Positions 11,477-28,990 of a DNA stretch of 64,000 nt are shown here, piece by piece. The stretch comes from a bacterium (GTDB taxonomy: Bacteria > Verrucomicrobiota > Kiritimatiellia > RFP12 > UBA1067). Within the stretch, counting starts at the first letter, position 1, and each line of letters begins with the position of its first letter. The notes below the pieces were generated by a model. The model saw only the letters and a program-made list of their open reading frames with translations. It was not told where the DNA came from and did no database searches. The stretch is from assembly GCA_037133395.1 (NCBI GenBank), contig JBAXOG010000002.1, positions 26,180-90,179 of the forward strand, read 5' to 3'. Position numbers and translations under genes: made by a program.

Positions 11477-11860
11477 GAAGCGAATACGCTTGTACCTTAT
11501 TGCGTGATTGCCTTATTGCCTTGTTTATTGAAAACTGCGGCTCACCAAGATCCGGTCCGGCAGTGGCCGGACCGGACCCTACCTTTCGACGAGGACTTGG
11601 GACACGGGACCTGGGACTTGCAGGAACAGTCGCGTTTTCGTACTAGCGACTCAATCGGTCAACCTTGTCAATGCGGTCAGTCGCGTTAGTCGCTCACTCA
11701 GTCAATCGGTCAAGGGGTCAATCCGTCACAAACCGAGATAGCGCGTAGCGCGCAAGGTAGGTAGAACCGCCTGCCACGCCGTAGCCGTAGTGTAGGCAGC
11801 CAGGCGCTCGTCCCTCCCAAAAGCGACTTCTCCCACCATTCCATTATTCCAGCATTCCAA
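11477..11860. repeat. Mosaic intergenic cluster of REP-like hairpins and 8-bp-period tandem repeats
   Basis: aagcg-aata-cgctt hairpin; tattgc(c/g)t repeats at 11498-11530; 11-bp stem at 11551-11576 with GTAG 5' on the minus strand; gggac repeats; gtcaa repeats; gctcgtccctccc half-REP; cattccaN x3 at 11837-11860. Confidence 0.85.
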
Positions 11861-11872
11861 TGCCGTTAACGC

Positions 11873-14779
11873 TTACTCGACTGCTGTTTTATATTTGATG
11901 CGCTTGTTCATGTAGAGGTCATATTTTTCGCGCTCGCCGTCACTCCAGGCGCCAGCCTCCGTATAGTTTTCGCAGAAGGGCACGCAGAGGTCAACCCACA
12001 TCGCGATAACAGCGACTTCTTGGGCTGTGATGGTCTTGCAATGGCCAGCATCCAGCTTTTTAAAGAACGGACTGGTATTCGATCCTTTGAAATAGGGCGG
12101 AATCAGTTTGACCGTCGAAGCCGCAGTGATCCAGTTTAGCAACTCGTGGTCTGCATTGCCGCGCCAACGCTGGCCCCCCTTCTTCTCATCTGAACGTGAA
12201 TGAGTCAGTGTCAAATAGGACTGCAACCAGGTGCGTTTCGCACCCGAGTCCAATACAGGCGTCTTTGTCAAATCATAGGTTCCTGGAAGTTTGTCTCCCT
12301 TTCCATCATGACACTTCACGCAATGACGGTCGAGAATCGGCTGAACTTCCTTGGTAAAGCTGAAGCCGCGCTTGGGCCCATTGATCGGTGCCAAGGCCTG
12401 TGCGCCTGTGGCTAGCGCTTTTGTGGTGCTTTTCTTATAGCTGGAGGGGACGCTATTCTTATTCTCATGGCATCCGACGCACGAAGCATTCTCGCCCTGT
12501 TGAAGTGTTGTCCAGCTTCGCATGGTCTGAACCATACGTCCCTTTTCATCCAGCAAAATAAAGTAAATCGGCTTGCAGGATTCTGTCTTGAAGAAGACAG
12601 ATCCGTCCTCGTAGACCTTTGCATCGCCCACGAGTATCTTCGGATCCCACGCGCCATTACCAATCGCAACAGGCGTACTCACCAGCGCACCGCCACCCGG
12701 CCCTCCATTGCCATTATTGCCAATGCCTGCCACGCGGAATTCAAGCTCAGCAACGCGCAGCGTCTTAATGGTGCCGCGCTTTACATCCTTCATGGGCTCG
12801 CCTTCATACACGTCCTGAATATAGAAGGAACCCTCTCGCTTGCCGTCCTGCACCATGGAGGGGCGTTGCAACGGACGCTTACGTGGAACAAGCGGCACCG
12901 CACGTCCGCAAGCCAAGCCCAGACGCGAGGCAAGTATCTCACGTTTGCCATCGATATCCATCCAGTAAATACCAAAGCCTGTCTTGCGATCACGGTCACG
13001 ACGACCTCCGCCCTTCGCGCCCCAGCCGATGGGATTGTACGTCACCACCAGTTGCTTCTGGTCGATCGGATAGGGATAAGCAAAGAGATCGTTTTCTTGT
13101 CCATAGCCATCGATGCGGATCGGATCTATTGCCGGCGGCGGACGGACAGGCGCCACAATCGTGATGCCTTCCGTTTCTTGACGTCCCTTGGCGGGCTCAA
13201 TGAAAATCAGCTCGCCCGGCTGGAAGGAGTGATGTCCCGTTGCAATAGCAAAGATGTTCGGCGACCCCGGAACAGCGCGGGCATGCGCAATGGTCGTCGG
13301 AAACCAGGAATTTTCGCCATAGACCGCAGTCTGTGCGGTGCCGTCTGGGAACATCTGGAACAAGGGCTGAGGATACATCTGGGAACGGTCATTGTATTCC
13401 CAGCGCGTGTACAGAATGCGGTTGTCCCACGTGAGGGTCGGATAGTTATCATGTACTTGGTCAAAAGCCATGCGCCGAATGTTTTTCCCGTTGGCGTCGC
13501 ACCCATACAGGTTACTCACCTCTGTCCACCAGCAATCAACCGTCTGCATACAACGCGAAGAGTTAAAGATAATCTTTCCATCGGCAAGATAACACCCTTC
13601 ATAATCTGCGACCCCCACGCCCTCCGTAAGCTGACGCATCTCTCCAATCTTCGTCCCAGTAGCATCCAAGGTGCATTCATAAAGATGGTAGTCATCCTCG
13701 CGGTCAGACTTTTTCCACGAGAACATGATCTTCTTGCCGTCAAAGTCCACATCGACATCACGAATGATTCCTTCCTTTGTCTCCAAAAGAATGGTCTCTT
13801 TCCAAAGTCCGTCCGGTGTCGCGTCTGCAAGGCAGAGCTGACCGCCAGCCCCAAAATTGCGTTCCGCCTGAGCATCAGAGACGGCTTCCGTATAGGCATA
13901 GTGTGATCCGCCCATCACAAAGTGACGCGCATAGACAAGCCTCGGCATGCCGCTAAAAACAGGTTTCAGACGAGCGGCGCGACGCGCCAAGCAAACCTTG
14001 CGATAAAAAGCGAGCATGGCCTTTACGTCATTTCCAGCAGGTACTTGCTCGGTATTCCATTTGCCACCCACATTCGTCCGCACGTCAGCCAGAGCCGCTT
14101 CCATGGCAACCTTCAGTTGCGCAACGCAATCCCCCTTATTTAGCAAGGCCATTCCATAATTATCCTTTAAATCTTGGCGCAACCAATCAGCCAGCAACTC
14201 ATCGCTCGTCTCAATCGCATCCCAAAGCTGATGATATGTCTGAGCCTTCTTCTGTAAGGGTTGCCCCAACAACTGTTCAACAAAAACAATAGCTTCTTCA
14301 GGGGACGAGACGGACGGACGAGGCCCGATATTTACATCAATCCCCTGCCCGCCCGAAGTCTGCAAGCAATGAACAGCAATGAAATTCTGTCCCTCTTTCA
14401 GGGTCGCTTGCGCCTCCTTCGAGATGGAAAATTCACGATATTCCGTAATATACCCCTTCGTCTCACAAGCCTTTAAACCATTGATATAGACGGTCGCATC
14501 CTCATCGTGGATCATCTTGAGGACACACGGGATTATCTTCTTAGGTTCCAATTGGAATGCGCGACGCATCCAAATATCTTTTGTGCGCCACTCGGTCTTC
14601 ACCTCAATATTCGGCGTGCCGGGTGTACCAAAGGGGCTTTCGCCCTTCTTCCAGGCGTCATCCTTAAAGTCCTGCTTAAACCAATCGTCAGCAGGCTTTA
14701 TAAAGGTATACTTCCACTCAACAGCCTGTGCAAAAAATGTCGCCCCTAAACACCCCATAACAAATAATACTTTTCTCAT
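11873..14779 (-). CDS. HzsA-like protein (hydrazine synthase alpha middle-domain family): N-terminal jelly-roll, beta-propeller, two c-heme motifs
   Basis: Signal peptide; galactose-binding-like HDEDATVYING; propeller DVDFDGKKIMFSWKK and GRILYTRWEY-like NRILYTRWEY; KPIYFILLDEKGRMVQTMRSW; CVGCH and CVKCH. Confidence 0.8.
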   Translation of the reverse strand: MRKVLFVMGCLGATFFAQAVEWKYTFIKPADDWFKQDFKDDAWKKGESPFGTPGTPNIEVKTEWRTKDIWMRRAFQLEPKKIIPCVLKMIHDEDATVYINGLKACETKGYITEYREFSISKEAQATLKEGQNFIAVHCLQTSGGQGIDVNIGPRPSVSSPEEAIVFVEQLLGQPLQKKAQTYHQLWDAIETSDELLADWLRQDLKDNYGMALLNKGDCVAQLKVAMEAALADVRTNVGGKWNTEQVPAGNDVKAMLAFYRKVCLARRAARLKPVFSGMPRLVYARHFVMGGSHYAYTEAVSDAQAERNFGAGGQLCLADATPDGLWKETILLETKEGIIRDVDVDFDGKKIMFSWKKSDREDDYHLYECTLDATGTKIGEMRQLTEGVGVADYEGCYLADGKIIFNSSRCMQTVDCWWTEVSNLYGCDANGKNIRRMAFDQVHDNYPTLTWDNRILYTRWEYNDRSQMYPQPLFQMFPDGTAQTAVYGENSWFPTTIAHARAVPGSPNIFAIATGHHSFQPGELIFIEPAKGRQETEGITIVAPVRPPPAIDPIRIDGYGQENDLFAYPYPIDQKQLVVTYNPIGWGAKGGGRRDRDRKTGFGIYWMDIDGKREILASRLGLACGRAVPLVPRKRPLQRPSMVQDGKREGSFYIQDVYEGEPMKDVKRGTIKTLRVAELEFRVAGIGNNGNGGPGGGALVSTPVAIGNGAWDPKILVGDAKVYEDGSVFFKTESCKPIYFILLDEKGRMVQTMRSWTTLQQGENASCVGCHENKNSVPSSYKKSTTKALATGAQALAPINGPKRGFSFTKEVQPILDRHCVKCHDGKGDKLPGTYDLTKTPVLDSGAKRTWLQSYLTLTHSRSDEKKGGQRWRGNADHELLNWITAASTVKLIPPYFKGSNTSPFFKKLDAGHCKTITAQEVAVIAMWVDLCVPFCENYTEAGAWSDGEREKYDLYMNKRIKYKTAVE

Positions 14780-14808
14780 CCCTGTTTCCCCTTATCGTAT
14801 GAACCTTG

Positions 14809-14860
14809 CCGCCTAAAGGCGGAACTCCAAACAAAACACTAACGCACTAACGAACTAACC
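14809..14860. repeat. GGAG-type REP-like hairpin plus three 8-bp tandem repeats (cactaacg)
   Basis: ccgcct-aa-aggcgg-aactcc at 14809-14828; cactaacg/cactaacg/aactaacc at 14837-14860, overlapping the stop codon of the dehydrogenase. Confidence 0.8.
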
Positions 14861-15792
14861 TTCTCACCCTTCAACACCTTGATGATGTTGTCAACCGCCA
14901 TGATCCCCATACCCTTGACTGCTTCAGCCGTATGCGCGCCCGTGTGCGGCGTAAAGATCACATTCTTCAATCCCTTTAGCGGCGACACCAACAGCGGCTC
15001 CTGCTCAAACGCATCCAACCCGAGGCCACCCAGTTGCCCGCTGACAACCGCTTGCGCAGCCGCCTCTTCATCAATGAGCCCGCCCCGCGCGGTATTGATA
15101 ATGATAGCACCCTTTTTCATCTTTGCAATACGTTCCGCATGGATCATGCGTTTCGTCTCGTCGTTTAAGGGCACATGCAAGGAAACAAAATCAGATGTGG
15201 TGATCACTTCATCCATCGTCTTCTTTGCAATACCGTTCGCAGAAGCAAACGACTCATCAAAGAAGGGATCATACGCAACCACCGTCATACCAAAAGCGAT
15301 TGCGCGTTTCGCAAGATTTTTGCCAATGGCTCCAAGGCCCACAATGCCGAGGGTCTTGCCATTCAGCTCCATACCCTCATTCCGTGGCCACTCCCCAGCC
15401 TCCACGGCCTTGTGCAGACGGGGAATATTGCGCGCGACACAGAGCATCAATGCGAACGCCAATTCGCAGACTGCCACGGCATTGGTGCCTGGGGTATTGG
15501 TCACAATAATACCTCTGCGCTTGCATGCTGGCAAGTCCACGCGGTCAACACCCGCGCCATAGCGACTAATGACTTTCAGACTTGCAGGTGCTTTTTCAAT
15601 GACCTCAGCGGTGATGTAGTCGAGACCCGCCACATATCCATCTACCCCCTCAAGGCGGGCAAGGATCTCTTCGGGTTGAAGAGGCTTCCCTGTTTCGTTG
15701 TAAACCACTTCATCTGCAAATGCTTCAAGTGTTTTCCTGGCTTGCGCATTTTCAGGTTTCAGAAAAGATGTGGGCGTCGCTAATATTTTCAT
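14839..15792 (-). CDS. D-isomer-specific 2-hydroxyacid (phosphoglycerate dehydrogenase-like) dehydrogenase
   Basis: RYGAGVDRVD, GIVGLGAIG, INTARGGLIDE, TPHTGAHT; RBS GGAGGG before ATG 15792. Confidence 0.9.
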   Translation of the reverse strand: MKILATPTSFLKPENAQARKTLEAFADEVVYNETGKPLQPEEILARLEGVDGYVAGLDYITAEVIEKAPASLKVISRYGAGVDRVDLPACKRRGIIVTNTPGTNAVAVCELAFALMLCVARNIPRLHKAVEAGEWPRNEGMELNGKTLGIVGLGAIGKNLAKRAIAFGMTVVAYDPFFDESFASANGIAKKTMDEVITTSDFVSLHVPLNDETKRMIHAERIAKMKKGAIIINTARGGLIDEEAAAQAVVSGQLGGLGLDAFEQEPLLVSPLKGLKNVIFTPHTGAHTAEAVKGMGIMAVDNIIKVLKGEKVSSLVR

Positions 15793-15803
15793 GGTCCCCT
15801 CCG

Positions 15804-16412
15804 TTACTTCCATTTCGGATTGTCAATCGCTGCGGGCAGACCATCCTTCTCAACCAGAAGTTTACGATAACCCTTGGTTTCAATGGTACCGTAATCATGT
15901 CCGGCGTCCGCACGAAAAACAAAGAACGTAAAAAGCGGCTCCGTTGCACTGACGTTGATACTGCGATGCGCATAGCGTTTAGGAACGTAAACAACCTTGC
16001 CGGGCGTCAATTCCTGCGCAGACCAATCGCCTTCAGGGTTTTCCAGCAACATATAACCATGACCGCCCATACAATAATAAATCTCCGCAGTATCCAGAAT
16101 CGTGTGAAAATGTCCCTTGGTCATGAAATACTCATGCCCCACCTTTCCAGGATAAGTAATGGAACAGCCAAAGGCAAGGTCGCCCGCATGCTCTGGCACC
16201 CCCATTTCATGAAATTCATAGACAACAGGATCGCCCTGCTTGAGCATTTCTGCATACGCAACATCATCCGCAAACATGCCCTTCATCTGGCTTAATTTGC
16301 GCTGGGTTGTCGCCTTCTTGTCAGACGCTCCTGTCTTCAAATTAAAATCAATCAGAAATCCCCGTTCATAATCAAACGGATTTTCACTCGCATTAAAACT
16401 TGCCATATTCAT
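15804..16412 (-). CDS. Cupin-type (archaeal-like) glucose-6-phosphate isomerase family protein
   Basis: EYFMTKGHFH, AEIYY, PKRYAHRSIN, DAGHDYGTI. Confidence 0.9.
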   Translation of the reverse strand: MNMASFNASENPFDYERGFLIDFNLKTGASDKKATTQRKLSQMKGMFADDVAYAEMLKQGDPVVYEFHEMGVPEHAGDLAFGCSITYPGKVGHEYFMTKGHFHTILDTAEIYYCMGGHGYMLLENPEGDWSAQELTPGKVVYVPKRYAHRSINVSATEPLFTFFVFRADAGHDYGTIETKGYRKLLVEKDGLPAAIDNPKWK

Positions 16413-16433
16413 CCTTGTCTATAACTTCAATGG

Positions 16434-16600
16434 AATTGCCTTATTGCCTTATTGCGTTATTGCCTTATTGAATTCGTGTGGTTCGTGTTATTCGATGCTA
16501 AAAAGTTACTCTTTCGTTTATGGCCGGGGTCTCACTGCCAACTGCTACTGCCTACTGCCACCCTGTCCGCCGTAGGCATCGCGAAGGCGGATGTGCCGCC
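16434..16600. repeat. Intra-operon cluster of short tandem repeats and a hairpin
   Basis: tattgcct-type octamer x5 at 16434-16473; ttcgtg x2; actgcc(a/t) repeats; tccgcc..aaggcgga hairpin. Confidence 0.8.
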
Positions 16601-16613
16601 TCGGGTGGCTGGC

Positions 16614-17573
16614 TTACCTTCTATTGAACTCAGATGCCACACGGTCACACTCTTTCAGCAAGGCGCCCTCGATCTTGAGATCAAACACTTCAGCAATGAC
16701 CGATGTCCAACCGTAAATGAAGTACATCCAGCCATCCTCGACATAAAGGTTGCGGTCTGCCTTCTGCTCCAACCCCTGATGCATGAAGCGCAGGTCTCCG
16801 CGATAGTTAATCTCCCAAACTAACGCGTTTTGCGGAAACTTCGCGGCATCGGTCAGCGGAGATCCTGGACGGTCTTTACCGAGACCAGTCGCATTAATGA
16901 TGAGGGATCCTTTGGGCATCTTGTGTAACACGGTGTCATTCTGCCCAGGATCAGGCGTGAGAAAATACTCACATACTGTCTGTCCCTTTGTATTGAGCAG
17001 GGTCTTATTGATATGTTCAATTTCATCCAAGCGAGGCTTGCTACGATTCGCAACAATAATCTTGGATGGGTAATTGCCTGCGAATGCATCGCGCAGAAAG
17101 TAAGAGCACATGGAAATCGCGCTGCCACCTGCACCCATGATAAAAACACCGGCCTCCGGATTAGTTTTCCAGTAATTTTTGGGGACAAATTCTTCAAGTG
17201 CCAAACCACAGGTAATTGGATCCTTGGCATGGCCGCACAATTTTGCCCCGCGCTTTGAAATGGAAGAGAGTTCGCCGAACTGCGTGGCATACGGATCAAG
17301 ATAGTCGAACATGTCCTTGCAGGCGTCAAAGAGGTCAATCTTGTGCGTTGTCACCAGCGCACCCATGGAGAGCGGATCTTCTCTTAAAAACTTCACAACC
17401 TTACGATAAACTTCGGGGTCCGCATGAATCGTGATATCAATGCCCTTCATGACCGTATTTTTCAACCCCAATGTCTTGGCCCATTCCGGAAAGACCTTCA
17501 TGATGGATGAACTTCCAGTCGTCACGCCAATAAAGTACATCGTCGGTTGTGTCGCTGGCTCAAAGTTAAACAT
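16614..17573 (-). CDS. Shikimate/quinate dehydrogenase-like NAD(P)-binding protein
   Basis: GALVTTHKID, MGAGGSA, VANRS, INATGLGK, WEINYRG; divergent from AroE. Confidence 0.7.
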   Translation of the reverse strand: MFNFEPATQPTMYFIGVTTGSSSIMKVFPEWAKTLGLKNTVMKGIDITIHADPEVYRKVVKFLREDPLSMGALVTTHKIDLFDACKDMFDYLDPYATQFGELSSISKRGAKLCGHAKDPITCGLALEEFVPKNYWKTNPEAGVFIMGAGGSAISMCSYFLRDAFAGNYPSKIIVANRSKPRLDEIEHINKTLLNTKGQTVCEYFLTPDPGQNDTVLHKMPKGSLIINATGLGKDRPGSPLTDAAKFPQNALVWEINYRGDLRFMHQGLEQKADRNLYVEDGWMYFIYGWTSVIAEVFDLKIEGALLKECDRVASEFNRR

Positions 17574-18531: not shown

Positions 18532-18532
18532 A

Positions 18533-19552: not shown

Positions 19553-21051
19553 AATGACTCCTTTTGTGCGGCCAAATCCTTATACACATCCACAAGCCTG
19601 CGATAAGCTTGTTCCATTACATCGCGGCGCATCCGATATTTGATTGCATGCTCAATATTCGGCTGCACCGTAGCATCGACACTCAGCAGTTGTTCAGCGA
19701 TGCTGAAATCCTTGAAGATTCCGCAGGCCACACCGCCGATAATTGCAGCACCCAAGGAAGTCGCCTCAGCCTTGGAGTTCAACGTCTGGACCGCGCATGA
19801 ACACGCTGAAGCCAGAATATGACGGAACACGTTGCTCTGTGCGCCGCCACCAATGATCGTGAGTTTTTCAATCGGCACGTGTACGCGGAAGATGTCGGCG
19901 ATGAGTCCCAGATTCATGGCCACGCCTTCCATCACTGCACGTAACATGTCCGCGCGTGTCGAAGCCAGGTTCAGTCCGATAAACGCTCCACGCGCATCGG
20001 GATTCCACCACGGCGTGCGTTCGCCCAGCATATACGGCAGGAAGAGTACGCCATTGGCACCCACGGGCGATGACTCCACCAGCGCTTCGATCTGCGCGAA
20101 GTCAGGACTCGTTGCGACCTGTTCAGACATCCATTTGAAACTCGACCCTGCGGTCTGCATCGTACCAGACGGATGAAGATAACCTGGAACGCAATGCGCC
20201 CAATTCATGGTCCGCATCTGCTCGTCTACAATCGGCTTTTCAACGGTCAGCGCAATCCAGCTCGACGAGCCCAAGCAGTTGTAAGCGCTGCCGGGCTTGA
20301 CGCAGCCAACACCGACACCTGCGGCACTGCCATCGCCGCCACCTGCTGCGACAGGGGTCCCAACAGCCAATCCTGTCTCTGCTGCGGCTTGAGGCGTGAT
20401 TCCACCAATGATGGTTGATGAATCAACAGCCTTTGGAAAATACGACACATCCAAGCCAGCAAGGCCGATTAGTTTTTCTGACCAAGTAAACGTATTGAGG
20501 TCAAAAGCGTTCGTGCCTGACGCATCGGAAAAATCCGTAGCCATCACGCCGGTCAGACGACAATTAATATAGTCCTTCGCGCAAAGCGTCTTAGCGGTTT
20601 TCTTAAAAACCTCCGGTTCATTATCACGCACCCACATCAGTTTTTCCAACGGGTACGACGAACTGGCGCGATGTCCGCAAATGCCATAAAACTCACGCAA
20701 CGAAATCTGATTGAGCAACGCAGCCTCTTCCTTTGTGGCCCGTTGGTCACAATAAAGGATGGAGGGACGCAAGGCACGACCGTCCTTATCCACAGGCGTG
20801 CACCCCATCATCTGACCGCTCAGGGAAACAACGGCGATCTCCTTCGGCGAGACCTTGGCCTCCGCGAGCAACTGCTTTGTTGAACCACAAACTGCCTTCC
20901 ACCAATCTTCCGGATTCTGTTCAGCCCATGAGCCATTAAAGAAGTTAGACGGATAGGATACCGTGGCACTCGCCATCTGCTTTCCCTCTTCCGAGTAAAG
21001 CGTGGCCTTATTGCCGCTCGTCCCTAAATCATGCGCCAGAATGTATTTCAT
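19549..21051 (-). CDS. FGGY-family carbohydrate kinase (xylulokinase-like)
   Basis: LAHDLGTSGNKA, SLSGQMMG, GGGDG, FLPYMLGERTPWW, AVMEGV, IGGGAQS. Confidence 0.92.
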   Translation of the reverse strand: MKYILAHDLGTSGNKATLYSEEGKQMASATVSYPSNFFNGSWAEQNPEDWWKAVCGSTKQLLAEAKVSPKEIAVVSLSGQMMGCTPVDKDGRALRPSILYCDQRATKEEAALLNQISLREFYGICGHRASSSYPLEKLMWVRDNEPEVFKKTAKTLCAKDYINCRLTGVMATDFSDASGTNAFDLNTFTWSEKLIGLAGLDVSYFPKAVDSSTIIGGITPQAAAETGLAVGTPVAAGGGDGSAAGVGVGCVKPGSAYNCLGSSSWIALTVEKPIVDEQMRTMNWAHCVPGYLHPSGTMQTAGSSFKWMSEQVATSPDFAQIEALVESSPVGANGVLFLPYMLGERTPWWNPDARGAFIGLNLASTRADMLRAVMEGVAMNLGLIADIFRVHVPIEKLTIIGGGAQSNVFRHILASACSCAVQTLNSKAEATSLGAAIIGGVACGIFKDFSIAEQLLSVDATVQPNIEHAIKYRMRRDVMEQAYRRLVDVYKDLAAQKESL

Positions 21052-21060
21052 GGGATTCCC

Positions 21061-21546
21061 CTATTTAAAGAGTTCAGCGCCAGTAAACCCAATCAGTCCT
21101 GTAATGGCACCACCGACAACACCCCCGAGGACGGCAACAAAAATGCGCGGCAGACTCTCGATTGCCAAGGATCTACGCGTCCCCTTTTGTGCGCCGATGA
21201 GACAATGAACCCAGAATCCGCAGGCAATGGCGCTTCCCATGTCAACCCACGGACACGCGCCCTTATAGGCCTGATAAATCAGTCCATACTGCTTCCATCC
21301 GCCATCCGGATAAGAGATACCATCGGGATTGATACCAAAGCCGGGAAGCTTATGATTCAAGAGCCAAAAGGTGCCGATGATGATCGTGGCACTCATAAAG
21401 CCGCCGATGGGGCCAAAGTCGCGCACAAGCTTCGGCCAGCAAATAATAACGGCAAACGTTGCACAGAAGGCGCCAAAGATGGTGGTGATCACACTGACTG
21501 GCGGCATACCGAGTGCAGGATTAAAGGTGGAGAGCCATTCAATCAT
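21061..21546 (-). CDS. Small membrane protein, Lin0368-like putative transporter subunit
   Basis: Several TM helices; GPIGGFMSATIIIGTFWLLNH and WVDMG parallel the paralog upstream; ATGA overlap sets the start at 21546. Confidence 0.65.
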   Translation of the reverse strand: MIEWLSTFNPALGMPPVSVITTIFGAFCATFAVIICWPKLVRDFGPIGGFMSATIIIGTFWLLNHKLPGFGINPDGISYPDGGWKQYGLIYQAYKGACPWVDMGSAIACGFWVHCLIGAQKGTRRSLAIESLPRIFVAVLGGVVGGAITGLIGFTGAELFK

Positions 21547-21932
21547 TTGGACACCTCCTTCTCTTCCAGATTTTGCCAGCCAGGCGCAACTTGCTTGACC
21601 ACATGGGCGGCCCAGCCTGCGAGCGCGCCGCCGATGAGACAACAAATCAACGTCGGAAAAATGTGCGTGAAGTGCGAGTTGGGATAAAAACGGACAAGCC
21701 CCCAGACAATGCCTGAAGCCGCAATCGGCCACCCTTGATCCACCCAAAGCGTCCCCTTCGGATTATCCATCACACCCAGCCAGTGGTTCATATACCACAT
21801 GGTGCCAATCACGACAGACGCTGTCAAAAATCCGCCCATAATTCCATACGTCTTCCACATCTCCGGCCATATCCCGAAGGCAAGCGAACCAACAATCGCC
21901 CCCCCGATAAACGTTGATAAATGTCTTTTCAT
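21543..21932 (-). CDS. Small membrane protein, Lin0368-like putative transporter subunit
   Basis: YGIMGGFLTASVVIGTMWYMNH, WVDQG; 129 aa with about 4 TM segments. Confidence 0.7.
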   Translation of the reverse strand: MKRHLSTFIGGAIVGSLAFGIWPEMWKTYGIMGGFLTASVVIGTMWYMNHWLGVMDNPKGTLWVDQGWPIAASGIVWGLVRFYPNSHFTHIFPTLICCLIGGALAGWAAHVVKQVAPGWQNLEEKEVSK

Positions 21933-21969
21933 GCGTGAACTGTCCCTTTCTGTTGACCTATAATTTTGT

Positions 21970-22001
21970 CATTCTAACATTCCCCTGTTCCAACATTCCA
22001 G
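21970..22001. repeat. 8-bp-period tandem repeat (cattccaN family, 4 units)
   Basis: cattctaa cattcccc tgttccaa cattccag. Confidence 0.75.
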
Positions 22002-22152
22002 CGCAGTTATAGGCAAGGCATCAAAATTCTTAATTGTCCGTACAATATAACAGACCCCTTTATGACCGTCAAGCCGTTATCTAATTATAATTTTGAATCG
22101 CACTTACTCACATTTCTTGACGTACTGTCGTGTTTTTGGCATTCTTTCCGAC

Positions 22153-23529
22153 ATGACACTGACAGCGCCAAAAACCCGATCAAGCAAAACTTTCTTAGGT
22201 CATCCGGTAGGACTGTTCGTCCTGTTCTTCACAGAAATGTGGGAACGCTTCTCATATTACGGCATGCGAGCACTCCTGATGCTCTACATGACTCAGTACC
22301 TGATTAAGGCTGCAGAGACGGGTACGACCATTGTGGGGTTTGCAACCCTCAAAGGCGGACTTGAAGCGGTTTTCGGATCGCTCGCCATTCAGCCATTGGC
22401 CTCGCAAATTTACGGCCTCTACACGGGGTTTGTCTATTTCACTCCGTTCTTCGGAGGCATTCTCGCAGACCGTCTGCTGGGCCAGCGCAAAACCGTGGTG
22501 ATCGGTGGCATCCTGATGGCCACTGGCCAATTCCTCCTCGCCTGTGAGCGGTTCTTCCTCTTGGCGCTTTTGTTCCTGATCATCGGCAATGGCTGTTTCA
22601 AGCCCAACATCTCCACTCAAGTCGGCAACCTTTACGAACATGGCGATCCACGCCGCGATGGCGCGTTTACAATCTTTTATATGGGCATCAATCTGGGGGC
22701 TTTTTTCTCACCCCTTATTTGCGGCACGCTGGGTCAAATCTATGGCTGGCACTATGGGTTCATCGCGGCTGGTGTCGGCATGTTGATCGGATTAGTGGTC
22801 TACTTGACTGGACAGAAATACCTCGCACCTGACAATTTGATGACGAAGGCCGCTGACGCTCACAGTGAAAAGACAGCGCTCACGGCAAAAGAGTGGAAGG
22901 GTATTCTCGGACTGTGCTGTCTCTGCATCCTGAACATCGTCTTCTGGGGGGTATACGAACAACAGGGGAACACGATTCAACTATTTGCTGATAAAAATAC
23001 CGACTGGCATGTCTTCGGCTGGGAAATGCCTTCGACATGGTTTCAATCTCTGAACCCTCTCTTCGTCTTCGCGTTGGCACCCTTCCTCAACATGTTCTGG
23101 GGCAAGCAGGCGAAGCGAGGGAAAGAACCCTCAAGCATTGCTAAAATGGCATTGGGCTGCCTGATGCTCGGCGTCTCCTTCCTCGTGCTGATGTTTGCTA
23201 CCAAAGGCATGGGCGAAACCCATCGCATCACCTTCCTCTGGCTCGTGCTGTGCACCTTCATCTATACCTTGGGCGAGCTCTACCTTTCACCGATCGGCTT
23301 GTCGCTGGTGACCAAGGTTGCGCCAGCCCGTCTGGTGAGCATGCTGATGGGGATGTGGTTCCTCTCCTCATTCTTCGGCAATTACCTGTGCGGATACTTG
23401 GGCACCTATTACGAGAAGATGCCCAAGGATAGCTTCTTCATGATGCTCACCTTGCTCGGCGTCATTGCAGGTGTCGCCATGTTCGCGCTCAAGGGTCCAC
23501 TCAAGAAGGCCATCGGCGAAGATGTGTGA
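22153..23529 (+). CDS. POT/PTR family proton-dependent oligopeptide transporter
   Basis: FTEMWERFSYYGMR (ExxERFxYY), GNGCFKPNIS, FYMGINLGAF, GELYLSP. Confidence 0.95.
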   Translation: MTLTAPKTRSSKTFLGHPVGLFVLFFTEMWERFSYYGMRALLMLYMTQYLIKAAETGTTIVGFATLKGGLEAVFGSLAIQPLASQIYGLYTGFVYFTPFFGGILADRLLGQRKTVVIGGILMATGQFLLACERFFLLALLFLIIGNGCFKPNISTQVGNLYEHGDPRRDGAFTIFYMGINLGAFFSPLICGTLGQIYGWHYGFIAAGVGMLIGLVVYLTGQKYLAPDNLMTKAADAHSEKTALTAKEWKGILGLCCLCILNIVFWGVYEQQGNTIQLFADKNTDWHVFGWEMPSTWFQSLNPLFVFALAPFLNMFWGKQAKRGKEPSSIAKMALGCLMLGVSFLVLMFATKGMGETHRITFLWLVLCTFIYTLGELYLSPIGLSLVTKVAPARLVSMLMGMWFLSSFFGNYLCGYLGTYYEKMPKDSFFMMLTLLGVIAGVAMFALKGPLKKAIGEDV

Positions 23530-23552
23530 GCAAAGGTATACCTGTAACTTCT

Positions 23553-23581
23553 CAGACAGAACTGTTTGCCACACCTTATGT
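23553..23581 (+). repeat. Degenerate copy of the GGCAGACA-GAAA-TGTCTGCC hairpin repeat
   Basis: cagacagaactgtttgccacaccttatgt; 2 mismatches in 29 nt versus the copies at 25228 and 26803. Confidence 0.85.
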
Positions 23582-23645
23582 CAGCAAGTCCGGGTCAGCG
23601 GTACAATCAAGACATTTCTGCCGATAATTCGCTTTTCACATTGCA

Positions 23646-23710
23646 AACGTTCTAAACGTTTGATACCTTAACGTTCTAAACGTTTGACACTTTAACGTTC
23701 TAACTGTTGA
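23646..23710 (+). repeat. 24-bp tandem repeat (about 2.7 copies) upstream of the AAA gene
   Basis: aacgttctaaacgtttgatacctt / aacgttctaaacgtttgacacttt / aacgttctaactgttga. Confidence 0.9.
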
Positions 23711-23720
23711 GGATATTGCC

Positions 23721-25034
23721 ATGGATATACGTGAAGTGAACAGGGCTTTAAGTGCGGGGAAGACCGATGAGCCTGGGGTACTGCCCAAGCTTGCAGAATT
23801 GCGTGAACAACCTTTTGTCATGGATACAGGGTTCAGTATTTCTGAGCTACCGGATCAGCCAGGTGTTTTGATCATCCGAGGTGCGCGTCAATATGGAAAG
23901 AGCACCTGGCTGCAGCAACAGATCGCCCAAACAATCAGACGCTTTGGCCCTGGATCGGCTTTTTATCTTGATGGAGATGAGTTACGCGACAGCGATGCGT
24001 TGTTGGAGGCGGTTCGAGAGCTACTCCCGCTTTATGACTCCAAAACGCCAGTCCGCAGACTCTTCATTGACGAGATCACCGCGATCAAGGATTGGCAAAA
24101 CGGGCTTAAACGTTTACTTGACCGTGGCGAACTCAAGCGAACGCTTGTCGTGACCACGGGCTCAAAAGCCGCAGATCTGAGACATGGTTCGGAACAGCTC
24201 CCCGGACGAAAAGGCACACTTGCGCGTAGCAGCCACCTCTTCACACCCGTGCCCTATTCCGAGTTCAAACGGGTCTGCGCGCCTACGCTAAACCCTGCGG
24301 ATGTACTGCCAGCCTATCTCCTCTCTGGGGGTTCACCTTGCGCGTGCACGTCACTGGCTGTTCAAGGACATCTTCCTGATCACCTTGTCGAAATGGTCAG
24401 GGACTGGGTCTACGGCGAGGTCTCGGCATCTGGCCGGTCACGTCCGATGATGAAGGGGGTCATGGAGTGCCTCATGCGTTTTGCCGGCACGCCTGTTGGT
24501 CAGTCAAAGTTGGCGCGCGAGGCGGGGTTGGCGAATAACACAGTCGCCGCAGGTTATGTTGACCTGCTCTCGGACCTCATGAGCGCAGCCGCCTGCTTTG
24601 CGTGGGACGATGCGCATCGGCGTCCAAACCGGCGGAGGCCTTGCAAATTTCATATCACCAACCTCCTTGTCGCTGCTGTATGGCATCCCTGTCGCCTGCG
24701 GCGGCCAGCCGACATCCGATCCCTCCCCCCCGAAGAACAGGGCGGGTTAATGGAGTGGCTCGTCGCCCAGGAGCTTTTCAGAAGGGCGGCACTTAGAGGA
24801 GACGAATTCCCCGAAGTGATGTCATACTGGAACACGGGCGAGCATGAACTCGACTTCGTCCTGGGACCTGACCGTTTCATCGAGGTCAAAAGGGGTCGCA
24901 CAGGGCCTCTGGACTTCATCTGGTTCCCCAAATGTTTTCCCAAAGGACACCTGACCGTGATCTCCGAGTCTCGCTACGAGACTGACCATATCCGCGGAGT
25001 CACGCTAGACGACTTTCTCCTCGGATTGCCTTAA
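23721..25034 (+). CDS. AAA+ ATPase with DUF4143 / nuclease-like C-terminus
   Basis: Walker A GARQYGKST, Walker B LFIDEI, VTTGS, YLLSGGSP, C-terminal HELDFVL..IEVK (PD-(D/E)XK-like). Confidence 0.88.
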   Translation: MDIREVNRALSAGKTDEPGVLPKLAELREQPFVMDTGFSISELPDQPGVLIIRGARQYGKSTWLQQQIAQTIRRFGPGSAFYLDGDELRDSDALLEAVRELLPLYDSKTPVRRLFIDEITAIKDWQNGLKRLLDRGELKRTLVVTTGSKAADLRHGSEQLPGRKGTLARSSHLFTPVPYSEFKRVCAPTLNPADVLPAYLLSGGSPCACTSLAVQGHLPDHLVEMVRDWVYGEVSASGRSRPMMKGVMECLMRFAGTPVGQSKLAREAGLANNTVAAGYVDLLSDLMSAAACFAWDDAHRRPNRRRPCKFHITNLLVAAVWHPCRLRRPADIRSLPPEEQGGLMEWLVAQELFRRAALRGDEFPEVMSYWNTGEHELDFVLGPDRFIEVKRGRTGPLDFIWFPKCFPKGHLTVISESRYETDHIRGVTLDDFLLGLP

Positions 25035-25095
25035 CACCCTTCTCAAAGCCACCTTCTCGTTCTTCGGCAGATGCCAATGCACTTCCCCCGCCCTC

Positions 25096-25308
25096 CATTC
25101 ACGCATTCACGCATTCGCGCATTTCTCAACCTCTCTCCCCATCCGCGCAAAATCCGCGTCATCCGTAGCTAAAAACGAAGCAACGCGATCTGCACGTGCA
25201 TGTTCATTCCTGTCTGTGCAACAACGGCAGACAGAAATGTCTGCCACACCTTATGTTGGCATCGCTGAGCACTGGAAAATGAACACGTTATTTCATGTGT
25301 CCAATGTC
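25096..25308 (+). repeat. Composite repeat unit, copy A: cattcNcg octamers plus a ~150-bp segment with a GAAA-loop hairpin
   Basis: Octamers at 25096-25127; aatccgcgtcatccg; ggcagacagaaatgtctgcc at 25226-25245; tail to catgtgtccaatgtc matches copy B. Confidence 0.92.
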
Positions 25309-25315
25309 GTCTAGA

Positions 25316-26473
25316 TCATTGGTTTAAAATTCCAAGAGCCTCTTGGTGCTTGGCTTGGATGAATTTTTCCAGTTTGTCCTTCGAGGGTAAATTCACTGCG
25401 TATTGGGAGACAAAGAGTTGGTTGTCCATGCTGGCGGTGGCGTATTCCACCAGTGCATGGTCTTTGTCGGTACAGAGCAACAGCCCCACGGGCAAGTTGT
25501 CGCCAGCGGACATCTTATGTCTGCGATACCAGGTGACGTAGGTGTTGAGCTGGCCCAGATGATCATGTTTAAACTCGTCCACCTTCAACTCGACCAGCAC
25601 ATGGCACTTGAGTATGCGGTGGTAAAAGACAAGATCCACAAAACCACGCGTCTTGCCGATGACGATGCTCTTCTGCTGCGCTTCCAGACAGAAGCCGTGG
25701 CCCAGTTCGAGCAGAAATTCCCGCAGGTTCTCCACCAGTGCCGCTTCGAGATCAGTCTCAGAAACCGCATCCTTTGCCCGCAGACCGAGAAACTCAAAGA
25801 TGTAGGGATCACGAATGGCTAGTTTCGGTTCTGCTGTCTCAACACCCTTCTTCACCATCGCCGCCAGCTTCTCCTTGTCCTTTGACAAACCCGAACGCTC
25901 GAAATAGAGCGTAGCGATCTGACGCTTCAATGCCCGCACTGACCAATTGCCGCGAATGCATTCGATCTCGTAGAAGGCTCGTTTGAGCGGGTCGTCGAGA
26001 TCAACAATGAGTTCGATATGACTGTATGAAAGTCGATTGATCAATTGCTCAACCGCCACGCCTAATTGTGGGGACGCTGTCCCCACTTTTCGCACAGGCA
26101 CGGGTATAGCTGGAAATTGTGGGGACAGTGTACCCACAATTCCCGGATAGAGTCGCCAGAATCTTAAATAACGGTAAAGTTGTCGGCGGTTGCTGTTGGA
26201 AACTCTCAGCTCTGTGAGCTGATCCGCTAACGCATCTAGTAGCCCGTCCCCATACTTTGCCCGGTCTGCTCCGTTCAATTCGTAGTGGTGAATATAGGCC
26301 CCGATAGTCCAGTTTCGCAGCGTCAACGTAACATTGACAACACGAGTGCCCTGAACAGTACAGTACTCGTCAACTTGCTGGATCGCCTTCACAAGCGCGG
26401 CGAAATCCAATTGAGTGCTGCTGTCCTTCGTGGTACTGCGTTTCTTAACAATGGCATTCTTCTTAATTGGCAT
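25316..26473 (-). CDS. DUF1016 / YhcG-like PD-(D/E)XK nuclease-domain protein
   Basis: LRNWTIGAYI, LSYSH, WSVRALKRQI, IRDPYIFEFLGL, FLLELGHGF, VDLVFYHRILKCHVLVELK, GQLNTY. Confidence 0.93.
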   Translation of the reverse strand: MPIKKNAIVKKRSTTKDSSTQLDFAALVKAIQQVDEYCTVQGTRVVNVTLTLRNWTIGAYIHHYELNGADRAKYGDGLLDALADQLTELRVSNSNRRQLYRYLRFWRLYPGIVGTLSPQFPAIPVPVRKVGTASPQLGVAVEQLINRLSYSHIELIVDLDDPLKRAFYEIECIRGNWSVRALKRQIATLYFERSGLSKDKEKLAAMVKKGVETAEPKLAIRDPYIFEFLGLRAKDAVSETDLEAALVENLREFLLELGHGFCLEAQQKSIVIGKTRGFVDLVFYHRILKCHVLVELKVDEFKHDHLGQLNTYVTWYRRHKMSAGDNLPVGLLLCTDKDHALVEYATASMDNQLFVSQYAVNLPSKDKLEKFIQAKHQEALGILNQ

Positions 26474-26623
26474 GGCTTATTCCTCTTTCGTATAACGACC
26501 TAAACTTGATGTTTCTGATAACTGTACTTAAACTTTTGTTTCGAGTCCAGACAAGAGGTTGAAAATTGGGGACGACATTGATATAGAATCATAATCCTGC
26601 CGGTAACTTCAAAAGAATTTCAT

Positions 26624-26883
26624 TATTGCGTTATTGCTCGAAGCGAATACGCTTGTTCCTTCAGCGTTAAGCGTTTCACGCATTCCCGCATTCGCGCATT
26701 CCCGCATTCGCGCATTCGAGCATTCCCGCAAATCCACGTCATCCGCACCTAAAAACAAAACGACACGGGTTGCACGTGCATGTTCCTGTCTGTGCACAAC
26801 GGCAGACAGAAATGTCTGCCACACCTTATGTTGGCATCGCCGAGCACTGGAAAATTACCACGTTATTTCATGTGTCCAATGTC
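26624..26883 (+). repeat. Composite repeat unit, copy B
   Basis: tattgc x2; gaagcgaatacgcttgt; cattc(c/g)cg x6 at 26681-26728; hairpin at 26801-26820; near-identical to 25151-25308. Confidence 0.92.
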
Positions 26884-27084
26884 AAGTGCGCCTCCTTTGT
26901 CTTCTGCTATTTCGGGAACCACTCCAACAGTTTATTAACTACCCGATCATGACCCTTCCGGTTCTCTATGAGAACCTTGTTTGGAGTGTTACCTTATTTT
27001 AAGTTTTTGAAGCGATCATTATTTGGTAGTTAGCACACGCAACTCCGAAGAACGGGTCACGAACCGCCCCCGAAGCCTTTTGCA

Positions 27085-28176: not shown

Positions 28177-28197
28177 ACAATACAAAAACTTAATCTT

Positions 28198-28815: not shown

Positions 28816-28825
28816 GAATATTCCA

Positions 28826-28990
28826 CTACCTTCGCATGGTCATGGAGAAGACATACTGGTCGTAGCGATAGACGCCCCGGACAAATTCAATCGGTTGCGA
28901 GGAGCTGCGCTGATAGGTCAGGCGCTCAATGATCAGGACGGTCTCATCAACAGGGACATTCAGCATCTTCGCCTCATCGGCTGTTGCCTT
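28826..28990 (-). pseudogene. Orphan 3' fragment (54 codons + stop) of a GntR/UTRA regulator
   Basis: Aligns without gaps to 41105-41269: 22 mismatches in 165 nt, only 2 amino-acid changes. Confidence 0.92.

Follow-up and report, generated by a model that had tools for sequence, protein, structure and literature searches.

Intergenic octamer arrays of a freshwater Kiritimatiellia genus and their probable origin from small PF05635 gene cassettes

Intervening sequences (IVS) of the S23p type occur in the 23S rRNA of Leptospira and Xanthomonas as well as of Coxiella burnetii. They are regarded as selfish, horizontally moving elements and are excised from the rRNA by RNase III. In C. burnetii, this element has a length of 428 nt, contains an S23p ORF and tandem heptamers (GACAGAT), the number of which varies between strains, and is closed by a 28-bp terminal stem which is cut by RNase III (PMC4990558). 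S23p of Xanthomonas has been reported, as cited in PMC4990558, to be a homopentameric toroid.

Short-unit tandem repeats of intergenic DNA are known as well, namely the cyanobacterial STRR and the GGGAATC/GGGGATT repeats of Xanthomonas and Nostoc (PMC4692102), the TAACTGA repeats of Beggiatoaceae (PMC4679880) and the multicopy "four tandem octanucleotide" and heptanucleotide sites of Geobacter metallireducens (PMC2700814). The arrays described here resemble these repeats in having 2–6 copies of 7–8-nt units, a strongly intergenic location, lineage-specific units, lengths which vary between close relatives, a frequent position near starts or stops of ordinary genes and frequent pairs on opposite strands (as in Geobacter). 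As in LSSR/STRR, they occupy many loci beyond chance, are mostly intergenic and change by whole units between close relatives. They differ in that period 8 instead of 7 is dominant, that many unit families occur together and that there is a putative gene-carrying parent element, the PF05635 cassette, which is unreported in PMC4692102, PMC4679880 and PMC2700814.

Octamer arrays in the window and in the genome

An earlier note on the window, i.e., the whole stretch of 64,000 nucleotides that was analysed, had listed octamer arrays at gene boundaries. Arrays were present at all of these positions, the one at 21970–22001 (cattctaa cattcccc tgttccaa cattccag) being degenerate, seen by eye and below a score of 30 in Tandem Repeats Finder (TRF). 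TRF located period-8 arrays at 11495–11522 (CCTTATTG, 3.5 copies), 11651–11728 (TCAATCGG, 9.4 copies), 11833–11859 (3.4 copies), 14837–14859 (CACTAACG, 2.9 copies), 16435–16470 (ATTGCCTT, 4.5 copies), 25096–25123 (CATTCACG, 3.5 copies) and 26675–26730 (7 copies). The array at 11651–11728 is absent from the list of the earlier note. All window arrays lie outside the genes called by a home-made caller. Within the 16 kb covered by the note, five arrays had a score of at least 40, compared to 1.0 expected from intergenic density (Poisson P = 0.004).

Throughout the 5.04-Mb genome, TRF found 185 arrays of period 8, 123 of period 7, 57 of period 9, four of period 6 and 40 of period 10 at a score of at least 40, while block-shuffled DNA yielded 1, 0, 2, 0 and 8, respectively. 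A lag scan of intergenic DNA, which is independent of TRF (20-nt window, at least 18 self-matches), gave 100 runs for lag 8, 21 for lag 7, four for lag 9, none for lag 6 and four for lag 10, with none in shuffled DNA. Both scans, the kind of check which the earlier note had proposed, show a strong preference for period 8 far above shuffled controls. Of the 185 period-8 arrays, 162 (88%) are located in intergenic DNA, which makes up 11% of the genome. The octamer arrays are real and genome-wide in this freshwater Kiritimatiellia genus. The units of this genus-wide population are 8 nt, some 7 or 9 nt, and the arrays are typically ~35 bp long.

The idea that divergent units share one period held for the period itself, which is preferred genome-wide, while the divergence had been overstated: the four units of the note belong to two single-substitution families. 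As 170 of the 184 period-8 arrays can be assigned to only four clusters linked by single substitutions, the common period probably reflects largely common descent. The largest family of this genome, ATTGCCTT/ATTGCGTT, comprises 75 arrays. A typical array has ~4.5 units (median length 35 bp), and whole-unit counts for ATTGCNNN are 57 arrays with two units, 28 with three, 42 with four, and one each with five and six.

An association with variable genes, as had been supposed, was not found for the arrays overall, as their neighbours are ordinary core genes; only the CATTCNCG family concentrates near accessory genes. Codon usage is more typical in array-flanking genes than in others (medians of 0.170 and 0.153, respectively, in log-odds per codon; P = 3e-8), and only 4.8% of them, compared to 10.6% of other genes, belong to the bottom decile. 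Likewise, the impression that arrays often sit next to hairpins did not extend to hairpins in general: a perfect GC-rich hairpin of at least 8 bp lies within 80 bp of 9.7% of arrays and of 10% of random intergenic positions. An association with arrays was seen, however, for two small hairpin motifs: GAAGCGAATACGCTT is near an array in 52% and CCGCCGTAGGCATCGCGAAGGCGG in 40% of cases (baseline 7.5%). A true REP family is also present, with 166 copies of GACGCCTATACGCCCAG (REP-A), and flanks a Y1_Tnp gene at C25. Octamer arrays resemble REP/REPIN-RAYT and BIME elements as small intergenic repeats combined into mosaics, but are tandem repeats and not single palindromes. As an array is found at a distance of up to 100 bp for only 12 of the 166 copies of REP-A (7% vs. 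7.5% baseline), an assignment to REP/REPIN-RAYT was rejected.

PF05635 cassettes and the solitary arrays of the window

The genome contains nine PF05635 genes above the Pfam cut-off. PF05635 is the 23S rRNA intervening-sequence protein, an S23p/Avd-like four-helix bundle. An intact cassette of ~450–650 bp consists of an arm, a PF05635 gene of ~130 codons and the inverted arm. At eight of the nine genes inverted arms were detected by a tool (22–41 nt long, 77–96% complementary, 305–491 nt apart, built of tandem 7–10-nt units), and at the ninth they were seen by eye. All nine cassettes are located in spacers between co-directional protein-coding genes, with the PF05635 gene on the same strand as every called neighbour and the nearer neighbour 2–58 nt away. 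Inverted arrays of 7–10-nt units surround 32 of 35 PF05635 genes checked in three genera; the cassette layout was found for three of four genes in the relative G002, for all 15 examined in G001, G003, G004 and G005 together, for three of three in genus g3 (G007) and for three of four in genus g9 (G013). The enrichment near four-helix-bundle genes, for which the earlier note had suggested to look, is thus borne out: inverted arrays abut all nine PF05635 genes here and most of the 26 in relatives.

One cassette, C151 (566 bp), lies between an Fe-ADH gene and a gene for a FAD-oxidoreductase of the DAO family. The same junction is empty in G003 (TAAtATG) and G002 (1-bp spacer), contains a lone ATTGCCTT array of 3.5 copies in G004 and two array stumps in G005, and carries the full cassette in the present genome (G000). 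When a cassette transcript was folded, the arms were paired as a closing stem (−167.4 kcal/mol vs. −147.3 ± 6.4 kcal/mol for shuffles; z = −3.15; none of 100 shuffles was as good). A gene for RNase III is present in the genome. No mobility enzyme, target-site duplication or excised form of the cassette was found, and neither a reverse transcriptase nor a template/variable repeat pair was seen in the inspected flanks. The cassettes stand alone, different from the systems of Avd, the accessory protein of diversity-generating retroelements and a PF05635 relative, which belongs to the same protein family as the cassette gene (PMC10053308).

The likeness to S23p IVS comprises the small size (~430–600 nt), a loop containing the ORF for a PF05635 four-helix bundle, inverted repeats at the ends which form a stem of ~25–40 bp, and tandem heptamers at the 5′ end with a strain-variable number. 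Unlike these IVS, which lie in helix 25 or 45 of the 23S rRNA, the elements described here occupy mRNA operon spacers between protein genes. Their arms consist entirely of 7–10-nt units in tandem, the unit is specific to each cassette lineage, putative orphan arms are scattered over the genome by the hundreds, and excision by RNase III is predicted. Intact cassettes contain both the PF05635 ORF and the stem-closing inverted repeats of S23p IVS; the solitary arrays of the window lack the ORF.

Outside the cassettes, 133 of 304 period-7/8 arrays (44%) match an arm unit of the nine cassettes, compared to 33 of 304 (11%) for letter-shuffled units. The ATTGCCTT/ATTGCGTT family corresponds to the arms of C151. 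In a sample from G002 the commonest family, AAAGTTCT (12 of 34), corresponds to the arms of two G002 cassettes, and in G007 the period-9 families AACCCTCAC and AACCTTCTC correspond to the arms of one cassette of that genome. In the relative G029, which lacks PF05635 genes, such arrays are nearly absent. The arm length in the present genome equals the typical array length. The remaining 56% of the arrays, including CATTCNCG, the longest of those listed in the earlier note, and TCAATCGG, have no arm match in this genome, and for them the link to cassettes is extrapolated.

The window contains no PF05635 gene, and its arrays are all solitary and unpaired. At 11478–11530 (plus strand; TRF and sequence) the hairpin GAAGCGAATACGCTT is followed by an ATTGC-type octamer array (TTATTGCG TGATTGCC TTATTGCC TT). 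As the left arm of C151 is the same hairpin-plus-array module, and as its unit matches, this feature is, judged by sequence, an orphan copy of the left-arm module of an ATTGC-type PF05635 cassette; both ATTGCCTT arrays (11495 and 16435) are putative orphan arms, their unit matching that of C151, which lies intact in another part of the genome. GGGAC-type 7–8-nt repeats (ggacttg ggacacg ggacctg ggacttg; 11592–11625, plus strand) belong to an intergenic repeat mosaic that, by BLAST, recurs in many other intergenic regions. The degenerate TCAATCGG-type array at 11651–11728 (plus strand; TRF), of the GACTGATT family, has a unit without a match to the arms of the nine cassettes, and no PF05635 partner was found for it; in other lake populations positions 11632–11739 are exchanged for 34 other letters. 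The CATTCCAN-type array at 11833–11859 (plus strand; TRF, sequence and family clustering) lies directly downstream of the stop of an HzsA-like gene (minus strand, 11873–14779), and the CACTAACG array at 14837–14859 (minus strand; TRF), which reads TTAGTTCG TTAGTGCG TTAGTG on the sense strand, lies over the stop codon of a 2-hydroxyacid dehydrogenase gene.

Between two co-directional genes, a ~220-bp repeat mosaic at 16413–16635 (minus strand; sequence and TRF) contains, in sense order, a REP-like hairpin, (GGCAGTA)n heptamers, (CGAANNACA) 9-mers, 4.5 copies of AATAAGGC at 16435–16470, the unit of which matches the arms of C151, the motif TTGAAGTTATAG (16418–16429), and the Shine-Dalgarno sequence and ATG of a GPI-cupin gene. 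The mosaic resembles a cassette shell that lacks the PF05635 gene. Upstream of a POT transporter gene, a 78-bp block (21955–22032, plus strand; sequence) consists of a degenerate CATTCYNN array of four units (21970–22001) and GTTATAGGCAAGG. The CATTCACG array at 25096–25123 (plus strand; TRF) lies between AAA_14/DUF4143 and DUF1016 genes. At 26620–26730 (plus strand; sequence, TRF and BLAST) a stump of two ATTGCGTT units and the hairpin GAAGCGAATACGCTT precede seven copies of CATTC(C/G)CG with a higher-order period of 24 bp.

Turnover between strains and origin of the arrays

From strain to strain the arrays differ by whole units gained or lost, and from species to species their turnover is fast. 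Array 25096 has an 8-bp deletion, i.e., one unit, in contigs of two other lake metagenomes; array 14837 is kept at the orthologous site with three units here, three in G003 and six in G002 (alignment); and TTTAGAAC has one copy vs. 9.4 between G000 and G002. Of 20 syntenic arrays in G002, only four to five have been retained in G000. About 75% of arrays are not conserved between species of the genus, and one and the same site can have different unit types. Whole blocks are affected as well: 16413–16635 is replaced by 12–16 nt in G003 and in the strain of run X8, and by a different block in G002, and 21955–22032 is absent from G002 (7-bp spacer) and from the strain of run X9, with a diverged copy in G003. 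As no convincing target-site duplication was found at three filled-versus-empty sites (16413–16635, 21955–22032 and the C151 junction), an assignment to MITE or IS-derived elements was rejected. The 5-nt sequence ATAGA stands at both ends of block 16413–16635; the other two sites have no comparable repeat.

We consider it fairly likely that the arrays represent either terminal inverted arms of small IVS-like cassettes or, in far more cases, their orphaned single arms and decayed shells. This builds on the observed architecture and orientation of the cassettes, their presence or absence at one junction, the identity of arm units with dispersed arrays and the unit-wise copy change. In an operon transcript the two arms would pair to a stem of ~30 bp, which RNase III is predicted to process as in rRNA intervening sequences, so that the PF05635 message would be released or isolated. 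Array-bearing spacers were found in metatranscriptome contigs, which are sparse. Cassettes would come and go, leaving single arms and arm mosaics behind, and the leftover arms would drift by replication slippage, with gain or loss of whole units, as well as by point mutations that are then re-amplified, which would result in different units of the same period. The cassette or RNA-processing signal proposed earlier is thereby retained in part: arrays do bound a gene cassette and a stem is predicted, but this cassette carries PF05635 and not DUF1016, and the window arrays are solitary. The order of events might also be reversed, with cassettes landing in or recombining with pre-existing slippage-born arrays instead of spawning them.

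That the arrays are ordinary long-unit simple-sequence repeats (LSSR/STRR) generated by slippage, with PF05635 cassettes being secondary and using or acquiring them, appears unlikely to us. The expansion of TTTAGAAC from one unit in situ, the one-unit indels between strains, the fast turnover and the share of arrays without an arm match would all fit, the lone G004 array at the junction of the G000 cassette could be a target site, and a heptamer excess in many bacteria, with polymerase slippage suggested to set the unit size, is mentioned in PMC4692102 (citing Mrazek 2007). Slippage alone, however, does not predict that array lengths are capped near 35 bp (~4.5 units) instead of running free, that four units are commoner than three, that dozens of loci have the identical internal order of variant units (ATTGCCTT ATTGCGTG ATTGCCTT ATTGCCTT ATTGAA), that whole blocks are present or absent, or that the sole relative without PF05635 nearly lacks arrays. 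Even less probable is a function as platforms for proteins which bind with one subunit per unit and regulate the neighbouring genes, either on DNA, as MetJ on 8-bp metboxes and the omega repressor on 7-bp heptads, or on 5′ leader RNA, as in the case of TAACTGA repeats, for which S1, Csp or CsrA sites have been proposed. Arrays with the motif TTGAAGTTATAG precede many start codons by 3–27 nt (genes directly downstream of this array-linked motif include MnmG/GidA, cytochrome bd subunit I, a sulfatase and dCMP deaminase), 32 of 44 co-directional spacers have AAGGCAAT in the sense orientation, and the flanking genes have well-adapted codon usage. The typical four units recall the proposed global-regulator sites of G. 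metallireducens (PMC2700814), and the heptamers of Beggiatoaceae lie directly upstream of start codons (PMC4679880). Yet divergent, promoter-bearing spacers are not richer in arrays than convergent ones, the strand bias is weak overall (A minus T positive in 97 and negative in 60), TTGAAGTTATAG is unlike the sigma-70 promoters of this genome as seen upstream of tRNA genes, and most arrays and even unit types are not conserved between congeneric species.

A reading along the lines of the earlier note, in which the arrays are recombination sites bounding mobile accessory cassettes (DUF1016, toxin-antitoxin pairs) of an integron-like system without a recognised integrase, we regard as very improbable. 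DUF1016 is indeed bracketed by two composite repeats of ~210 bp (25098–25308 and 26675–26883; 84% identity by BLAST), opened by array 25096 and by the CATTC(C/G)CG array, respectively, and CATTCNCG arrays flank DUF1016, AAA_14/DUF4143, AbiEii-like and Fic genes. In G002, synteny is lacking for the AAA_14/DUF4143, DUF1016 and kinase/regulator genes. On contig C140, CATTCNCG, CACTAACG and ACTGCCN arrays occupy every spacer of a co-oriented toxin-antitoxin-type island (DUF4160/DUF2442 twice, DUF6922/AbiEii, nucleotidyltransferase, RelE/MqsA-like and DUF3791/DUF3990). Against this, core genes flank arrays genome-wide, an attC-like R″/R′ pair was not seen by eye in the C140 spacers, an Rfam scan of window positions 9000–30000 gave no match, and no recombinase or integrase was visible among the Pfam-annotated C140 genes. 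Number and order of arrays vary between spacers, unlike in defined recombination sites, and no pair of empty and occupied sites was found for a toxin-antitoxin cassette. No parent cassette for CATTCNCG and TCAATCGG arrays was found among the arms of the nine cassettes; the CATTCNCG family is a candidate cassette-boundary element near accessory genes.

An origin of many of the arrays from arms of PF05635 cassettes can be tested and would explain a class of bacterial repeats for which an explanation has long been lacking.

Period-8 arrays in the window and across the genome

The octamer arrays listed in the earlier note are present in the sequence. TRF returned period-8 arrays at 11495-11522, 11833-11859, 14837-14859, 16435-16470, 25096-25123 and 26675-26730, together with a longer and more degenerate one at 11651-11728; the degenerate array at 21970-22001 could be seen by eye only. 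Every one of them is intergenic, as the claimed placement at gene boundaries had it. The window corresponds to C2:26180-90179 of the source genome. In the source genome (5.04 Mb in 290 contigs), 185 period-8 arrays reached a TRF score of at least 40, compared to a single one in shuffled DNA. At the same threshold, 123 arrays were found for period 7 (none in shuffled DNA), 57 for period 9 (shuffled: 2), 40 for period 10 (shuffled: 8) and only four for period 6 (shuffled: 0). An independent lag scan of intergenic DNA pointed the same way: lag 8 had 100 runs, lag 7 had 21, lags 9 and 10 had four each and lag 6 had none, and in shuffled DNA there were no runs at all. The periodicity scan with shuffled controls, which had been suggested as a check, therefore places period 8 far above the shuffled level. 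Although intergenic DNA, as delimited by our own gene caller, makes up 11% of the genome, it holds 162 of the 185 period-8 arrays, and co-directional, convergent and divergent spacers carry them roughly in proportion to the DNA available in each.

The idea that different units share one period was borne out in part. The four units named in the earlier note represent only two clusters, yet several unrelated lineages do have the period in common. Overall, the 42 period-8 consensus units fall into 13 single-substitution clusters, four of which account for 170 of 184 arrays, and 43 pairs of units are at most one mismatch apart (5.6 expected). As the units collapse into so few clusters, much of the shared period appears to reflect common descent, with a unit mutating and then being re-amplified. 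Array length is restricted, with a median of 35 bp; among ATTGCNNN arrays, 28 have three and 42 have four whole units, while five and six units occur once each. The internal order ATTGCCTT ATTGCGTG ATTGCCTT ATTGCCTT ATTGAA recurs with common flanks at dozens of loci, which argues that these loci are copies of one another and not independent products of slippage.

Some arrays have further properties. At 14837-14859, read on the sense strand of a minus-strand gene, every unit (TTAGTNCG) contains TAG. Because the period is 8, three consecutive units place a TAG in each of the three frames where the 2-hydroxyacid dehydrogenase gene ends. Arrays of AATAAGGC likewise give three-frame stops, with TAA. 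A 24-bp unit, AACGTTCTAAACGTTTGACACCTT, is repeated 2.4 times at 23646-23703, directly upstream of the AAA_14/DUF4143 ATPase gene; a BLAST-type search of the genome found no second copy of it, and the repeat looks like an operator. Contig ends frequently fall within a ATTGCCTT array or within the TTGAAGTTATAG module described below (e.g., C162, C245, C248, C274 and C182), which makes these repeats a main source of breaks in the assembly. The arrays break short-read assemblies and lend themselves as fast markers for strain typing.

PF05635 cassettes and their inverted arms

PF05635 (S23p/Avd-like) is a very large family which is, to our knowledge, uncharacterised. In the source genome, nine genes exceed the Pfam cut-off for PF05635, and each has the same orientation as all of its called neighbours. 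Around eight of the nine, inverted arms of 22-41 nt were detected by a search tool, 77-96% complementary and 305-491 nt apart; the arms of the ninth were seen by eye. As these arms consist of tandem 7-10-nt units, the predicted enrichment beside four-helix-bundle genes was found in the form of inverted arrays at all nine PF05635 genes. The same layout surrounds three of four PF05635 genes in the complete congeneric genome G002, all 15 examined in the other four congeneric genomes (G001, G003, G004 and G005), all three in a genome of genus g3 (G007) and three of four in a genome of genus g9 (G013). A genome from another family (G029) has almost no arrays and no PF05635 gene.

The arms also recur outside the cassettes. 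Among 304 arrays elsewhere in the genome, 133 have a unit that matches one of these cassette arms, compared to 33 for shuffled units, and arm length equals typical array length. The commonest family, ATTGCCTT, forms the arms of an intact cassette on contig C151, and the window arrays at 11495 and 16435 match these arms; the small hairpin that comes after the left arm of this cassette, GAAGCGAATACGCTT, recurs next to 11495 and at 26637. In a 400-kb sample of G002 the dominant unit is a different one, AAAGTTCT, which is also the arm unit of two cassettes in that genome; in one of them the arms are 36 nt long and 100% complementary. The period-9 families of G007 correspond to the arms of one cassette of that genome. 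No arm among 35 PF05635 loci from eight genomes matched the CATTCNCG arrays, which flank the DUF1016 gene, or the TCAATCGG array.

The junction between an Fe-ADH-family gene and a gene for an FAD-dependent oxidoreductase provides an orthologous series of empty and occupied sites. It is empty in G003 (TAAtATG) and in G002 (1-bp spacer), holds a lone ATTGCCTT array of 3.5 units in G004 and two array stumps in G005. In the source genome it is occupied by a 566-bp cassette composed of an arm, a hairpin, the PF05635 gene, the inverted arm, a new Shine-Dalgarno site and the ATG. No target duplication is visible at this junction.

Turnover of arrays and the genes beside them

Each of the six genomes of the genus has ATTGCCTT arrays, with 19-152 hits to the pattern per genome compared to 0-2 for the reversed control; of the 19 other genera of the family, a single one has them. 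The period spectrum of the G002 sample (34 arrays of period 8, 13 of period 7, 15 of period 9) is as in the source genome, whereas periods 7 and 9 are preferred in genus g3. Individual arrays turn over quickly: 20 G002 arrays could be placed in the source genome by their syntenic flanks, and only four to five of them are kept there; in one of these comparisons TTTAGAAC is present 9.4 times versus as a single unit. The array at 14837 has three units in the source genome and in G003 but six in G002. In contigs from other lake metagenomes, the array at 25096 carries a one-unit (8-bp) deletion, 11632-11739 is replaced, and 16410-16621 and 21959-22034 are absent; alignment showed the block at 16413-16635 to be absent in G003 as well and different in G002, and the block at 21955-22032 to be absent in G002.

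A general tie of the arrays to variable genes, as the earlier note had it, is contradicted by the codon usage of array-adjoining genes, which is more typical than that of the remainder (P = 3e-8; share of the bottom decile halved), and by the genes located behind the TTGAAGTTATAG motif, among them those for MnmG/GidA, cytochrome bd subunit I, a prepilin-type protein, a sulfatase, dCMP deaminase and a GT2 glycosyltransferase. The motif comes after arrays with several types of unit, and many start codons have a sense-oriented copy of it 3-27 nt upstream, the Shine-Dalgarno site lying between the two; sense copies prevail 46:17 in co-directional spacers. Its fuller form, TTGAAGTTATAG(G/A)YAAG, is found at 16418-16429 and has about 60 copies in the intergenic DNA of the genome, one of them at C25:14700-14711. 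The motif is present throughout the genus (six genomes) and 22 times in a genome of genus g9 (G013), where longer dispersed repeats terminate in it. A promoter function does not fit, as neither strand matches at a steady spacing and Shine-Dalgarno sites come directly after the motif, which is also unlike the canonical sigma-70 promoters (TTGACA-N17-TAnAAT) of the tRNA genes. A conserved RNA structure formed with the next hairpin was likewise rejected, since folding was no better than for shuffles (z from -0.43 to +0.88).

The exception is the family of CATTCNCG arrays, which flank DUF1016, AAA_14/DUF4143, AbiEii-like and Fic genes and, with CACTAACG and ACTGCCN arrays, fill the spacers of a co-oriented toxin-antitoxin-type island at C140:300-8500 (DUF3791/DUF3990, two DUF4160/DUF2442 pairs, DUF6922/AbiEii, a nucleotidyltransferase and RelE/MqsA-like). 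There, each spacer is a mosaic of 7-9-nt arrays. A 28-nt motif, TTGAATTTTTAGCTACGACCCCTCGAAC, follows several stop codons of the island and occurs twice after a Y1_Tnp-like gene at C2:90506-91558, about 300 bp beyond the window end. Within the window, the gene for DUF1016, a YhcG-type nuclease, lies between two composites of about 210 bp (25098-25308 and 26675-26883) that are 84% identical and in direct orientation. The hairpin at their core, GGCAGACAGAAATGTCTGCCACACC, is found seven times in the genome, once as a partial copy at 23553-23580. The AAA_14/DUF4143, DUF1016 and histidine-kinase/LuxR-regulator genes of 23534-28832 are non-syntenic in G002 while the flanking POT transporter gene is syntenic, which marks this segment as species-specific accessory DNA.

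Origin of the arrays

Intergenic tandem repeats of 7-8 nt have been reported since 1990 from cyanobacteria, Xanthomonas, Beggiatoa and Geobacter. We know of no agreed origin or function for them. The present arrays share the defining features of the STRR-type heptamer/octamer class (PMC4692102; PMC4679880; PMC2700814) and differ from it by their capped length. One conceivable source, REP elements with a RAYT-like gene, does exist in this genome as the family GTACAGGCGGGGACGCCTATACGCCCAG (166 sites, in inverted doublets), which flanks a Y1_Tnp gene with a HUH motif at C25:2-1100, but it shows no association with the octamer arrays. No duplication is seen at the empty sites, which speaks against stacked target-site duplications of an insertion sequence that duplicates 8 bp. 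A sense-strand RNA function of all arrays fits poorly with their weak A>T bias. An Rfam search of 9000-30000 (E <= 1) returned no relevant known RNA family, and the hairpin association suspected earlier was not general, being absent for perfect 8-bp GC-rich stems.

The 23S rRNA IVS of Coxiella burnetii offers a closer precedent: this selfish element of 428 nt contains an S23p (PF05635) ORF, RNase III cuts it at a terminal stem of 28 bp, and its tandem heptamers vary in number among strains (PMC4990558). In the predicted fold of the C151 cassette RNA, the two arms pair as a closing stem (-167.4 kcal/mol versus -147.3 +/- 6.4 for shuffled sequences), and the genome encodes an RNase III. Array-bearing spacers occur in RNA contigs from three metatranscriptome runs of the same lakes, in which the organism is thinly covered. 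The cassettes share with the IVS the PF05635 ORF and the terminal inverted repeats with a predicted closing stem, and differ in their location outside the 23S rRNA. The paired arms, the RNase III gene and the Coxiella precedent together suggest that the cassettes are IVS-like elements resident in mRNA operons, whose transcripts may be cut by RNase III at the paired arms, and that solitary arrays, including those of the window, are probably orphaned arms and decayed shells which go on changing by slippage. The cassettes would be mobile, and arrays would derive from them rather than cassettes entering arrays.

In the searchable literature, no paper was found that describes operon-spacer cassettes with PF05635 genes as a source of such repeats; here, a cassette origin of arrays is examined in a Kiritimatiellia lineage with an orthologous empty-site series. 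In three Kiritimatiellia genera, the dispersed repeats can be tied to a gene-carrying element of rRNA-IVS design in mRNA operons. S23p is reported to be a homopentamer in work cited in PMC4990558, and with the cap at about 4.5 units this gives the idea that one unit may be bound per subunit. A far broader proposal, which we regard as improbable, would unite PF05635 proteins and tandem-array arms in one protein-coupled class of insertion elements colonising operon spacers. In this scheme, the Avd-like pentamer would attach to the arm of its own element with each subunit on one unit, and thereby set unit length (7-9 nt, lineage-specific) and array size (4-5 units), and orphaned arms would constitute much of the bacterial intergenic heptamer/octamer excess (STRR, GGGAATC, TAACTGA and Geobacter sites). 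Should the tie between repeats and cassettes in the three Kiritimatiellia genera hold, it would by itself provide a testable source for intergenic 7-8-nt repeats and a first genomic role for PF05635 beyond rRNA and diversity-generating retroelements, and many operons would contain RNase III-type processing sites that stem from selfish elements.
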